A DNA stretch of 64,000 nucleotides from a virus (IMGVR_UViG_3300046519_000060:64001-128000), one strand, 5' to 3'; counted from the first letter of the stretch, positions 30,664 through 48,312 are shown. The notes: generated by a model not told the origin, from the letters alone. A program made the numbers and translations.

Positions 30664-31386
30664 ATGAAGTCATTCAAACAGTTTATTGCGGAATCCGAAC
30701 AACATCCGATGATCGATGTGGATGGTGTCCAGAAGCATCGCAACAATAGTGAGGGACGACCGATCCATCCGACTGACGAAGGTATCCGCAACTTCCATCG
30801 CTGGTTTGGTGACAGTAAGGCCGTCGATCAACACGGACGGCCACAGGTGATGTACCACGCGTCCACATATGGTGACATCCACAAGTTCAATACACACGAA
30901 GGCGTGTTCGGTAAAGCTGGTTACGGTTCATATTTCAGTAACCAACACGGTGCCAACATGTTCGCTGAATACGGTCAGAACTTCCAAGCGAATCGTAGTT
31001 GGGCTGGTGAAGAAAAGAAAGTGAATGTGACTCCGGTGTATTTGAAGATGAACAATCCGCACTATGCAGACCACGTTGATGATCTTCGGCCCGGTATTCA
31101 TCTTCATGCCAATCAGACCTTCGGACAAGGCGCACAGTACCAGAAGAACAAACCGAATCCAGTTGGCCCACTGGAAGCTAAGGGTCATGATGGCATCATC
31201 ACATCCGAAACCACAGCCAAGAAGGTGCATAAGACCCAAGGGTTGAAGATTCTTGATAGGGACGACCCCAAGGCGACACGGTTCCCGGTCCATGTCGTGT
31301 TCCATCCGCATCAGGTGAAGTCCGCAGTCGGCAACAACGGCAAATTCAGTTCGGATTCCGAACACATCCACGAACAGGTGAAGTAA
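30664..31386 (+). CDS. ADP-ribosyltransferase-like protein (ART-PolyVal type) with capsid-targeting N-terminus
   Basis: NFHRWFGDSKAVDQHGRPQVMYH...G.YFS...PVYLKMNNP...GHDGII...VFHPHQVKSAVGNNGKF matches the ART-PolyVal pattern. N-terminus MKSFKQFIAE. Confidence 0.7.
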   Translation: MKSFKQFIAESEQHPMIDVDGVQKHRNNSEGRPIHPTDEGIRNFHRWFGDSKAVDQHGRPQVMYHASTYGDIHKFNTHEGVFGKAGYGSYFSNQHGANMFAEYGQNFQANRSWAGEEKKVNVTPVYLKMNNPHYADHVDDLRPGIHLHANQTFGQGAQYQKNKPNPVGPLEAKGHDGIITSETTAKKVHKTQGLKILDRDDPKATRFPVHVVFHPHQVKSAVGNNGKFSSDSEHIHEQVK

Positions 31387-32036
31387 TGGCAGTAAACAAC
31401 TATTTTCAAGCGGGTATCCCGGAAGCCTACGGCAATACCCAAGACCTGATCGAAAGCCTCACCATTGAAGCCATCCAGATCGGCGGAATGAATGTGTACT
31501 ACATTCCCCGCACCATTCTGGTAGAGGACATCAATCCGGTGCTGACAGAAGATGTGCTGGCGTCCTATGAACATGCGTTCCAGATTGAAGCCTATTTGGA
31601 GAACGCCACTGGCTTCGAAGGTGATGGCGCAATGCTGTCGAAGTTTGGCATTGAAATTTCGGATTCCTGCACATTTGTGATGTCGCGTCGTCGCTGGACA
31701 GAGGAAGTCGGTTCCAAGGGTGTGACACGTCTACCCCGTCCGATTGAAGGCGACATCATCTTCTTGCCCCTGACCAAATCGTACTTCGAAATCAAGAAGG
31801 TCAATGCACAGAACCCGTTCTACCAGTTGGGGAAGCTGTACACCTATCGTCTGGAATGTGAACTGTTCAACTTCTCGCACGAACAATTCGAGACTGGCGT
31901 TGAAGAAGTGGACGAACTGGCAATGGAAATCAACCTGCACGACTTGGACCCCGGTTCACAGAATGATGTGTTCGATGCCAAGAAGTCGGACACACTGGAC
32001 TTCGATGAATCGAATCCGTTCGGAGACATTCAGTAA
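31386..32036 (+). CDS. gp14: Neck protein gp14
   Basis: LIESLTIEAIQIGG..VYYIPR; IE.YLEN..GFEG; PFYQLGK...L.CELF. Confidence 0.93.
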   Translation: MAVNNYFQAGIPEAYGNTQDLIESLTIEAIQIGGMNVYYIPRTILVEDINPVLTEDVLASYEHAFQIEAYLENATGFEGDGAMLSKFGIEISDSCTFVMSRRRWTEEVGSKGVTRLPRPIEGDIIFLPLTKSYFEIKKVNAQNPFYQLGKLYTYRLECELFNFSHEQFETGVEEVDELAMEINLHDLDPGSQNDVFDAKKSDTLDFDESNPFGDIQ

Positions 32037-32803
32037 TGCTTTCTAGTTCACCTTTCTACAATCGCACCACTGAGAAGGCCATCATTGCATTCGGCAACCT
32101 GTTCAAGAATGTCTACATCGAACGGTGCAAACAAGATGGCACGGTGGAAAAGACGATTCAGGTTCCGGTGTCATATGGTCCCAAAGAGAAGTTTCTGGCA
32201 CGCGAGCAACAGCAACCGAACATCGACTTCTCGACCGAAGAACTGACGCTGCCCCGTCTGGCCTTTGAAATCACTGGTTTCCAACCGGATGCCAGTCGGC
32301 GCATGAACCCGATGCAGCAGCGCAAGGCGGTCGTCAATGGACAGACCAACAGTGTGTTCAATCCGGCCCCTTGGAACCTCAATGTCAGCCTGTATGCCAT
32401 TGCCAAGTACCAGACGGACGCATTGCAGATGTTCGAACAGATCATCCCGATGTTCAATCCGTCCTACATCGTCACGATGAAGTCGCTCCCGGAACTGAAC
32501 CTGACGGACGATGTGCCGATCATTCTGGACACGGTGCAGCATGAGGACACCTATGACCAGAAGTTCGAACAGCGGCGCATTGTGACCTTCACGTTCAACT
32601 TCACGATCCAGATGAACTACTACGGTGGTGTGGACAAGAACCGTGCAGTCATCAAGCAGACCGAAGTCGAAATGGTTGGTGGTACTACCGATCCTTCATT
32701 GGGACTGCCCGCACTGGAAGTAATCAAGAATACGGTGTCGCCATTGTCGTCCAATGTGACTGACAGTTGGACGACCATTACAGAGATTGATGGATTCAAA
32801 TAA
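32036..32803 (+). CDS. gp15: Tail sheath stabilizer/tail terminator gp15
   Basis: FYN.T..K.IIAFGNLF...VPVSYGPKEKFL...TLPRLAFE. Confidence 0.93.
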   Translation: MLSSSPFYNRTTEKAIIAFGNLFKNVYIERCKQDGTVEKTIQVPVSYGPKEKFLAREQQQPNIDFSTEELTLPRLAFEITGFQPDASRRMNPMQQRKAVVNGQTNSVFNPAPWNLNVSLYAIAKYQTDALQMFEQIIPMFNPSYIVTMKSLPELNLTDDVPIILDTVQHEDTYDQKFEQRRIVTFTFNFTIQMNYYGGVDKNRAVIKQTEVEMVGGTTDPSLGLPALEVIKNTVSPLSSNVTDSWTTITEIDGFK

Positions 32804-32805
32804 TC

Positions 32806-46671: not shown

Positions 46672-46678
46672 CTAAATA
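46672..46678 (+). promoter_or_regulatory. Late promoter for the ART pair
   Basis: CTAAATA immediately after the terminator, upstream of a GGAG RBS and the ATG at 46703. Confidence 0.8.
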
Positions 46679-46702
46679 TTGACATATTCCTCGGAGTGCG
46701 CT

Positions 46703-47512
46703 ATGCAAACCTTCAAGCAATTCCTCAAAGAACAAGAAATCGATCCCAAGAACGGTTGCATTGGCCCCGATGGTGTCCCATGTCTCTATACCAATTGGGA
46801 CCGTGCTATCGGTCCTGATGGCGTCCCCACTGCCCTGATTGACTGGTCCGATGCTCGCGCCCGCAAGCGCCGCGTACAGGAAGGCAAACATGGCGATCAT
46901 ATCGACCACTGGACGGAACATCACGACAACGACCACATCGGCGGATCGGTGCGTGCTGTCCATGAACATCTGGCAGATGCCGACAGTTCTGGTCGTGGTG
47001 ACGTTGAAGCCGTCAGGCACTACACCCGCGATTCGAAGTGGCTGAACGAAGGTCTATACGACGCCCACAAGACCGGCGCAAAGGTTCCCTACGAACTCGG
47101 CGGTCACTCTGTTCTGGCGCTCGATAAGGCCATGAAGAAGAACAAGCTGGCGAAGCCCCTGAACGTCTACAGCGGCGTGCGTGTGAATCCCGGAAAGCTG
47201 GCAGAGCAACACCCAGAAGGCCATCTGCACCTTCCCGCGTTCGTCTCTACGTCCATCGACAAGGACGAAGCCCGCACGTTCGCAGAACACGGCTATGGAA
47301 GCTACGGTAAGGATCAACACATCATCCACTTCCATGTCCCGGCTGGTCATGAAGGGAAGTACGTCGATCATCACAGCGCAAACTCGGGCGAACGTGAATT
47401 CATTCTCCCGCGTGGGACGACATGGAAGATTCACCCGAAGCCGGATAGCTACGAAAACAACGATGGTGAAACACATACCCACATTTGGCACGCACATCCA
47501 ACTAACGTATAA
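46703..47512 (+). CDS. ADP-ribosyltransferase (VIP2/Alt-like fold) with capsid-targeting N-terminus
   Basis: HYT..S..LN..L; LD.A..K; VYSG; FVSTS; EREFILPRG (E-x-E). N-terminus MQTFKQFLKE. Confidence 0.85.
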   Translation: MQTFKQFLKEQEIDPKNGCIGPDGVPCLYTNWDRAIGPDGVPTALIDWSDARARKRRVQEGKHGDHIDHWTEHHDNDHIGGSVRAVHEHLADADSSGRGDVEAVRHYTRDSKWLNEGLYDAHKTGAKVPYELGGHSVLALDKAMKKNKLAKPLNVYSGVRVNPGKLAEQHPEGHLHLPAFVSTSIDKDEARTFAEHGYGSYGKDQHIIHFHVPAGHEGKYVDHHSANSGEREFILPRGTTWKIHPKPDSYENNDGETHTHIWHAHPTNV

Positions 47513-48312
47513 TGAAGTCGTTCAAACAATTCATCTTTGAATCCGTCGATCATGGTGTGGTCGATGGGATTCCTTGTGCCGTCATCTTGAAGCCCGAACA
47601 CCTATCAGAAGAAGTACATCGCATGGCGAAGTGGGCGCTCGATGCTTCGGACAACTCACATCTTGGTGGTACGAAGAAGTCGCAAGGCGATTCGCTTGCA
47701 TGGTCACATCCTATCAGCCCGGATGATCGCAAGCATCTGTACCGCTACACCAAGTCAAGCAACACGCTGAATAGCGATCTGTACCGCCGTCACATGGAGA
47801 ACGATCCGGTCAAGCATCCGGCCACGGTTCCGACCAAGGTCAGCGGTGAACACCATGACGTTGCGGCGCTCGATAAGGCCGTCCATCAGCCGTTGAAGCA
47901 AGACGTACACGTTCATAGCGGCGTGCGCTTCAACCCCGGCAGACTGGCTAGAAATCATCCAGAAGGCCATATCCATCTGCCCGCCTATACGTCTACATCA
48001 CTGGACCGTCAGGTTGCGAACCAGTTCTCGGACTCGGGTCATATCCTGCACATCCATTTGAAGGCTGGCGACAAGGCGCGATACGTTGGTGCTGATTCGC
48101 ACTACCCGCATGAGAAGGAAGTTCTTCTGCCGCGTCACACGACGATCAAGGTTCATCCCGAACCCGATGTTGTTCAAGGTGAAGGTGGAACCAAGGTCCA
48201 CGTCTGGCACGCACATGTTGTCCATCAGGCGCACCCAGATGAAATCAAGCCGCAAGGTAAGGCGAAGAAGGTCAAGCCCCGCTCCCTCGATACCACGGTG
48301 ACAGACGTGTAA
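47512..48312 (+). CDS. ADP-ribosyltransferase (VIP2/Alt-like fold), paralog, with capsid-targeting N-terminus
   Basis: RYT..S..LN..L; LDKAV; VHSG; YTSTS; EKEVLLPRH (E-x-E). N-terminus MKSFKQFIFE. Confidence 0.85.
   Translation: MKSFKQFIFESVDHGVVDGIPCAVILKPEHLSEEVHRMAKWALDASDNSHLGGTKKSQGDSLAWSHPISPDDRKHLYRYTKSSNTLNSDLYRRHMENDPVKHPATVPTKVSGEHHDVAALDKAVHQPLKQDVHVHSGVRFNPGRLARNHPEGHIHLPAYTSTSLDRQVANQFSDSGHILHIHLKAGDKARYVGADSHYPHEKEVLLPRHTTIKVHPEPDVVQGEGGTKVHVWHAHVVHQAHPDEIKPQGKAKKVKPRSLDTTVTDV

Follow-up and report, generated by a model that had tools for sequence, protein, structure and literature searches.

The record IMGVR_UViG_3300046519_000060 of IMG/VR (167,847 bp, G+C 52%) describes a T4-like phage in which several enzymes share a short N-terminal leader, and we consider it likely that this leader is a capsid-targeting sequence (CTS) of the T4 internal-protein (IP) type, cut by the prohead protease gp21 and placed on enzyme cargo destined for injection. 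The window analyzed here comprises bases 64001-128000 of the record (64,000 nucleotides), and positions follow the numbering of this window unless they are marked as genome. Three plus-strand open reading frames (ORFs) of the window, starting at 30664, 46703 and 47512, encode proteins of 240, 269 and 266 residues, which we call ART1, ART2 and ART3 for their resemblance to ADP-ribosyltransferases (ARTs). Their translation yielded the near-identical N-termini MKSFKQFIAE, MQTFKQFLKE and MKSFKQFIFE, respectively, the same three leaders that a first-pass annotation of this DNA had read as an address tag for the capsid.

The pattern put forward in that annotation, M[KQ][ST]F[KQ].F[IL].E, retrieves precisely these three genes from the whole genome and proved too narrow, since an Acb1 homologue and a fourth protein, with a putative ART fold, escape it. 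When positions 2, 5 and 6 are relaxed (M-x-[ST]-F-x-x-F-[IL]-x-E), two genes beyond the window are added: one at genome 39158 on the plus strand (MLTFAQFLLE, 170 residues; P0005, the Acb1 homologue) and one at genome 11176 on the minus strand (MHSFKRFLAE, 175 residues; P0004). The relaxed motif is matched by 5 of 6,779 candidate starts, with no match in the reversed genome and none in each of 20 codon-block shuffles. Phe4, Phe7, Ile or Leu at position 8 and Glu10 are present in all five leaders, which conform to the consensus M-[KQHL]-[ST]-F-x-x-F-[IL]-x-E and precede three unrelated folds within one genome (ART1, P0004 and Acb1).

The T4 record (NC_000866) confirms the sequence MKTYQEFIAE at the start of IPII and IPIII; IPI begins with MKTFKEFTST and runs on to an ITE, and Alt begins with MELITELFDED. 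The first ten residues of IPIII suffice for packaging, the aromatic residues at positions 4 and 7 of the T4 CTS matter for targeting and residues 8 and 10 for processing, and an Asp at position 10 blocks processing with targeting retained (PMC9026906). The recognition of variable internal proteins via their leader has been known since 1994 (cited in PMC12373910). The leaders found here match the T4 CTS at positions 4, 7, 8 and 10 and the genome encodes gp21, gp22 and gp23, in agreement with the idea of a tag shared with T4. The window also encodes the portal gp20 (coordinates of the other head genes are given in Table 1). The gp22-type scaffolding protein contains nine [LI]-x-E sites, and gp23 has an N-terminal propeptide with an ALFE/DAP site at residue 53, ahead of its Pfam domain (here and below, a slash marks the putative cut). 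The nearest cultured relatives of gp23, from Methylophilales phage Melnitz, Pelagibacter phage Mosig and cyanomyoviruses, reach only about 60-62% identity, which assigns the phage to the distant-T4 radiation and makes it a remote relative of T4.

The enzyme-like nature of the three proteins, also part of the first-pass annotation, is borne out by profile searches. ART1 matches the ART-PolyVal family PF18760 over its entire length (profile 1-140 of 140, residues 55-228, 3.4e-16, 60.7 bits, cut-off 31.2), and its gene lies between a gp13-like ORF and gp14, whose start is overlapped by the ART1 stop codon. The 5,384 relatives of ART1 are polyvalent proteins for the most part, and 95 of the 150 best matches exceed 1000 residues, being giant polyvalent proteins. 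Orthologues of ART1 start with MMKTFKQFLRE and MKTFKQFITE. The leaders of 34 short relatives differ from one another (MKTFKQFLRE, MYKKLYEAIHQVLLE, MKYDQIAEAYKKLLNE and MTIKNIPQSLLDAVKKVLTE, as well as some that end in HQVLLE/S, KKLLNE/S and KKVLTE/S), and all of them close with [LIVM]-x-Glu, after which the identical start HPMI(D/E)VDG...WFGDS follows. Differing leaders in front of one mature start are the pattern expected if lineages add their own cleavable propeptide. A sequence search of ART1 against the PDB gave nothing meaningful, and among cultured phages it gave remote matches in unrelated phages only.

ART2 and ART3 match PF03496, ADPrib_exo_Tox (5.9e-15, 55.6 bits, and 1.3e-16, 61.0 bits; cut-off 23.4). 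The motifs SGVR, STS and ExE (ERE, within GEREFILPR) are found in ART2, and SGVR (R139), STS (161-163) and EKE (201-203) in ART3. Both are C3/Alt-class and probably arginine-specific ADP-ribosyltransferases; they also match weakly the PHROG family "Alt-like RNA polymerase ADP-ribosyltransferase". An AlphaFold2 model of ART3, built with 32 homologues, has a pLDDT of 85 and matches C3bot1 (Foldseek E 2e-11, TM 0.65, probability 1.00), and the leader is modelled, at low confidence, as a helix (residues 4-12) that stands apart. S161, E201 and E203 are invariant in the 32 homologues, and an MK[ST]FKQ[FY]-like start is present in 31 of them, with the leader conserved and the linker that follows it variable. 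The ART3 protein had no match among cultured phages.

The two genes are adjacent paralogues, translationally coupled through a TAATG overlap, and from the signals read around them they form a discrete cassette: a terminator-like hairpin, a CTAAATA motif, the two coupled genes and a bidirectional terminator-like hairpin. The complete genome of a sister phage, G001, has 168.5 kb and direct terminal repeats. Orthologues of P0004 and ART3 are retained in it with their tags, and it displays four consecutive coupled genes starting with MKTF (L143:168-2864), as opposed to two here, three of the four bearing R-S-E-type ART motifs. By analogy with the ip loci of T4, the cassette locus can be described as hyperplastic. 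Leader variants in the cassette of G001 include one of 14 residues ending in LITE and one with Asp10.

P0004 has no Pfam match. Its model (pLDDT 86) finds almost exclusively members of the ART superfamily, at moderate scores: AcrIF11 (Foldseek probability 0.90, Z 6.1) and MbcT (Z 6.2) and, to a lesser extent, ParT, diphtheria-type toxins, PARPs and DarT. Atlas feature matches to ART-PolyVal (0.91) and AcrIF11 (0.88) are taken as leads only. In the family of 30 members a conserved leader is followed by a gapped, variable linker and by a domain that begins at VHGIHYS. Searches against cultured phages gave remote matches in unrelated phages only.

P0005 is, by its sequence, a homologue of the cyclic-oligonucleotide phosphodiesterase Acb1, which acts against CBASS, a signalling system against phages that is based on cyclic oligonucleotides: it matches PF23474 from residue 16 onwards (1.7e-33, 115.8 bits, cut-off 27) and retains both HxT/S motifs (HVTLLYS and HFTMSY) typical of the 2H phosphoesterase fold. 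About a dozen of 34 Acb1 homologues start with ML[TS]F[KRAH][EQ]FLxE; another group starts with MKLxELxE and ends with [LI]-x-E, which recalls the N-termini of Alt and gp21; and a few lack any extension ahead of GTYA, the first conserved strand. In P0005 and about a dozen environmental homologues, the CTS-like extension that precedes this strand is 10-15 residues long. Acb1 of T4 (gp57B) starts with MMEFKDFST, which keeps F4 and F7 and has no [LI]xE site, and its gene adjoins ipI. Together with the leaders on environmental homologues, these features suggest that Acb1 may often come from the virion. The paper that described Acb1 makes no mention of virion, capsid or leader (Hobbs et al. 2022, PMC9117128), no paper in the literature searched ties Acb1 to virions or packaging, and a tagged Acb1 appears unreported in that literature; it is the more novel sub-finding of this work.

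To see the leader beyond this genome, IMG/VR was scanned for DNA encoding MK[ST]FKQFIxE, for which we estimate a chance expectation well below one. The scan gave at least 119 loci, with 127 ORF starts at the matched ATG, and the figures that follow hold among the matches listed. Of these ORFs, 113 are complete and no shorter than 50 residues, and they fall into 46 cargo clusters (hence at least 46 families), with similarity confined to the leader. Among the recognizable cargo domains are S-adenosylmethionine (SAM) lyase, zeta-toxin/AAA_33 kinase, NUDIX, glucosaminidase, DPBB lytic transglycosylase, two ART families and several domains of unknown function. T4-like core genes occur within the fetched flank at 77 of the 119 loci, and the usual sites of the tagged genes are the gp20-gp21, gp16-gp17 and gp13-gp14 intervals. 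In a non-circular test on ORF starts of the matched loci, from which the search pattern was excluded and in which only M..F..F was required, Glu10 was present in 34 of 56 further ORFs and Leu or Ile at position 8 in 33 of 56. In the literature searched, no paper contained the strings MKTFKQF or MKSFKQF, and none dealt with a natural ART bearing an IP-type CTS; the pf16 paper contained nothing of relevance.

All three genes had been assigned to late transcription units, which is plausible as a motif-based assignment: a late-promoter-like CTAAATA heads both the ART1 and the ART2-ART3 units. This motif occurs 24 times on the plus strand of the genome and 3 times on the minus strand. As a rule it lies 24-45 nt ahead of a structural-gene start (gp13-like, gp18, gp22 and others), and it also precedes P0004. 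The T4 late promoter TATAAATA was considered as the late signal and set aside, with only 3 occurrences in the genome; CTAAATA is the better candidate. In the ART1 unit, the ORFs at 29896, 30664, 31386 and 32036 mutually abut or overlap.

Every computationally testable part of the first-pass reading agreed with the proposal, which is thus supported, and the following course of events can be outlined. The tagged proteins would be made late in infection, and their leader would dock them on the gp22-based scaffolding core during prohead assembly, as in T4. The gp21 protease is predicted, from the motif and the homology boundaries, to cut after Glu10 at [IL]-x-E, and the mature enzymes would be retained in the head, alongside the packaged DNA, and be delivered with it to the next host, as T4 internal proteins and Alt are. 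This cargo would consist of two C3/Alt-class ARTs, one ART-PolyVal enzyme, a putative ART-fold protein resembling AcrIF11 and MbcT, and Acb1, pre-loaded host-takeover or counter-defence enzymes that would act before phage gene expression. Most likely, the phage injects ready-made host-takeover and counter-defence enzymes along with its DNA; we infer their enzyme activity and targets.

Several points weigh against this interpretation. Packaging, leader cleavage and injection are inferred for a phage known from its IMG/VR record alone, and gp22 is the presumed docking partner of the leader by analogy with T4 only. In about one third of the leaders of the ART3 family, position 10 is occupied by D, Q, S or N (Glu10 is present in 20 of 32), where no cut would be expected, so that cleavage is not universal. 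The Arg of the R-S-E signature is present in only 10 of 32 members of the ART3 family, ART2 and ART3 among those that have it. No CTAAATA lies near the Acb1 gene, which is preceded instead by a sigma70-like promoter and a hairpin; this makes its late synthesis uncertain, and Acb1 may be expressed early, also or solely. Finally, close cultured relatives with these cargos were not found, either by nucleotide search or by protein searches with ART1, ART3 and P0004.

Both the family members without Glu10 and the perhaps early expression of the Acb1 gene would also fit a leader that serves another destination (tail, baseplate, membrane or a modifying enzyme), with the proteins at work in the cell that makes them or on the surface of the virion. 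We regard this as unlikely, given that the leader corresponds, residue for residue, to the experimentally defined T4 CTS at its functional positions and is devoid of a hydrophobic span, that the tagged genes are grouped with head genes, often in the gp20-gp21 interval, and that the substrates of ARTs and Acb1 are cytoplasmic.

The composition of the tagged proteins bears on a further possibility. Histidine is extremely frequent in ART1, ART2, ART3 and P0004 (30664-31386, 46703-48312 and genome 10649-11176), at 8.3-10.5% versus a genome median of 2.5%, which recalls the basic T4 internal proteins that pack with DNA; the proteins could then be packaged and play a mainly intracapsid role, as DNA counter-ions or scaffold fillers, rather than act after injection. 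This is slightly less probable still, because STS and ExE are invariant in the 32 ART3 homologues, Acb1 has both of its HxT/S motifs, the ART-PolyVal profile is matched at full length and enzymes with cytoplasmic substrates have no obvious function in a capsid. The ART3 family as a whole contains 7-14% His.

The 127 leaders of the IMG/VR matches correspond to 100 distinct 30-mers in which synonymous codons vary freely, and upstream of them only an A-rich ribosome-binding region is conserved, which argues for selection on the peptide and not on an RNA or DNA element. That the shared N-termini stem from a recent duplication or a nucleotide element (translation-initiation, regulatory or recombination cassette) is hence largely refuted and very improbable, even with ART2 and ART3 being adjacent paralogues and with PeSLs, conserved gene-start cassettes, reported to promote shuffling in T4-like phages (PMC2839356), as ART1, P0004 and Acb1 share the leader despite their unrelated folds and the 46 cargo clusters are likewise unrelated. 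To read the leader as an IP-type capsid-targeting sequence is the most economical option.

Table 1. Coordinates of the tagged genes, head-assembly genes and transcription signals discussed in the text (window numbering unless marked as genome).
Feature	Position	Strand	Remarks
ART1, stand-alone ART-PolyVal ADP-ribosyltransferase	30664-31386	+	PF18760
Leader of ART1	30664-30693	+	predicted cut after Glu10
ART2, C3/Alt-class (R-S-E) ADP-ribosyltransferase	46703-47512	+	PF03496
Leader of ART2	46703-46732	+	
ART3, C3/Alt-class ADP-ribosyltransferase	47512-48312	+	PF03496
Leader of ART3	47512-47541	+	
P0004, fourth, putative ART-fold protein	genome 10649-11176	-	
P0005, Acb1 anti-CBASS phosphodiesterase homologue	genome 39158-39670 (L004:9159-9671)	+	PF23474
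gp21-type prohead core serine protease	41238-41894	+	PF03420 Peptidase_S77, 9e-43
gp22-type scaffolding core protein	41959-42927 (alternative start 41929)	+	PF25623 T4_CASP, 1.4e-61
gp23 major capsid protein	42995-44323	+	PF07068, 2e-141, match from residue 69
CTAAATA heading the gp13-like/ART1/gp14/gp15 unit	29852-29858	+	
Terminator-like hairpin closing the unit upstream of the ART cassette	46630-46658	+	12-bp stem, 7 GC pairs, T run
CTAAATA late-promoter-like motif ahead of ART2-ART3	46672-46678	+	24 nt upstream of ART2 start codon
Bidirectional terminator-like hairpin ending ART2-ART3	48318-48339	both	9-bp stem, 6 GC pairs
ADP-ribosylglycohydrolase, without leader	48562-49515	-	PF03747, 9e-46
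Sigma70-like promoter TTGCAA-17-TATAAT with TG, GC-rich hairpin directly after	genome 38079-38152 (L004:8079-8152)		upstream of the tagged-Acb1 unit

An ADP-ribosylglycohydrolase gene converges on the ART2-ART3 cassette, and its product may serve as an eraser for the ARTs, either shielding the producing cell or countering host ARTs. The N-terminus of gp21 (41238-41270), MKLITELYDD, resembles the propeptide of T4 Alt, and N-termini of this kind, together with the MKLxELxE starts seen among Acb1 homologues, may represent a second targeting propeptide, of Alt/gp21 type. A nucleotide search with the region gave no match among cultured phages. The 144-residue ORF at 39821, in the position of gp67, was taken by eye for a homologue of phrog_1742 and rejected when BLASTP gave no alignment; it has a weak match to a "prohead" PHROG only.

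Elsewhere in the genome, high His contents are seen in an LRV-repeat array (genome 51994-56544, within the baseplate module) and in two proteins of 292 residues (genome 29955-30833; L146:1956-2831) and 425 residues (genome 36570-37847; L004:6571-7848), for neither of which a Pfam family exceeded the cut-off. The last two have similar N-termini, MKTFFQLRNYLNDLPLISE/EL and MSLNFWQMRHQLDALKLVTE/EL, with leaders of 19-20 residues that end in [IV]-[ST]-E; T4 IPI up to its ITE also measures 19 residues (MKTFKEFTSTTTPVSTITE). Judged by sequence, this type of N-terminus may constitute a second leader class.

The commonest tagged protein is phrog_1742 (106 residues; IMG/VR loci L006-L122), which starts with MKSFKQFISESVNI.GDF.GNLY and whose gene lies in most loci between gp20 and gp21. 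It is present in 135 cultured cyanophage records (e.g., MK867354.2, 44215-44535), cultured Synechococcus phages included, and is therefore experimentally testable; S-RIM8, S-T4 and S-SCSM1 are Synechococcus phages that encode it, with the start MK[ST]FKQF[IM]SE. In cyanophage S-SCSM1 the neighbours of the 106-residue tagged gene are annotated as "virion protein" and the tagged gene is not; as this annotation covers the neighbours only, it is not evidence of packaging. The same Synechococcus phage encodes a 409-residue protein that starts with MKSFLQFLKE (L151:1501-2730) and shows, by eye, the nucleotidyltransferase-type motif GRFNPPTVGHEKL; this protein may be one more tagged cargo related to NAD or nucleotides, in a cultured phage.

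Proteins injected with the DNA act before phage gene expression and are thus a first line against host immunity. If the leader has the function known from T4, sequence would suffice to tell which proteins uncultured T4-like phages inject; here these would include several ARTs and an anti-CBASS nuclease, to which related contigs would add SAM lyase, NUDIX, kinase and cell-wall hydrolase domains. The result is a testable list of candidate early-acting effectors, and it suggests that anti-CBASS activity could be delivered pre-made. More tentatively, and with somewhat less than even confidence, we propose that the IP-type leader serves the distant-T4 radiation as a whole (cyanophage-like, pelagiphage-like and the approximately 170-kb group) as an address tag by which catalytic counter-defence and takeover enzymes, and not small inhibitors alone, are pre-loaded, and that Acb1 is often delivered from the capsid, perhaps that of T4 too. 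Were this so, the proteins that thousands of uncultured phages inject could be listed from nothing more than a leader profile.

The targeting signal itself, and the principle of a packaged ART, are textbook knowledge. Alt of T4, an ART of the R-S-E class, is synthesized late and packaged in the head; gp21 trims it, and after injection it modifies host proteins. The gp20-gp21 interval of T4 is the site of the prohead-core genes. To our knowledge, the injected proteins of T4 amount to a handful, Alt and three small GmrSD inhibitors. The present case adds the natural, predicted enzyme cargo (four proteins with a known or putative ART fold, and Acb1), the presence of the leader in distant-T4 clades and the evidence for cleavage from homology boundaries; the tagged enzymes would also be natural precedents for the engineered CTS-enzyme fusions of T4 nanoparticle work.

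The system described here resembles the T4 internal proteins in its leader of about ten residues, with M-K-T, aromatics at positions 4 and 7, Ile or Leu at position 8 and Glu10, in the co-occurrence of this leader, within one genome, with a gp21 S77 protease and with a gp22 scaffold, and in the unrelated cargo behind a constant leader, encoded at hyperplastic loci that differ between sister phages. It departs from them in its cargo, since the natural IP cargos of T4 are small, non-enzymatic inhibitors of GmrSD-type restriction enzymes (PMC12373910), whereas those found here are predicted enzymes of 170-270 residues (ARTs and an Acb1 homologue). Moreover, the consensus is FKQF here and YQEF in T4, the proteins are His-rich instead of Lys-rich, and the phage, whose gp23 is about 60% identical to that of pelagiphage and cyanophage myoviruses, is a member of a distant clade that lies near these and is uncultured. 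ART2 and ART3 share with T4 Alt the R-S-E class and a weak match to the same PHROG, but unlike Alt (682 residues, propeptide MELITE/L) they are small, C3-like and preceded by an IP-type leader; the Alt-type N-terminus is found here on gp21 itself (MKLITE/L). P0005 resembles T4 Acb1 (gp57B) in its PF23474 match and its two HxT/S motifs, and differs from it in having a CTS-like leader that ends in an [LI]xE-type site. Finally, the ART-PolyVal polyvalent proteins share with ART1 the catalytic domain and the preceding HPMI(D/E)VDG...WFGDS module, but in them this domain is one module among many, whereas ART1 stands alone, at 240 residues, behind a predicted cleavable capsid-targeting leader.

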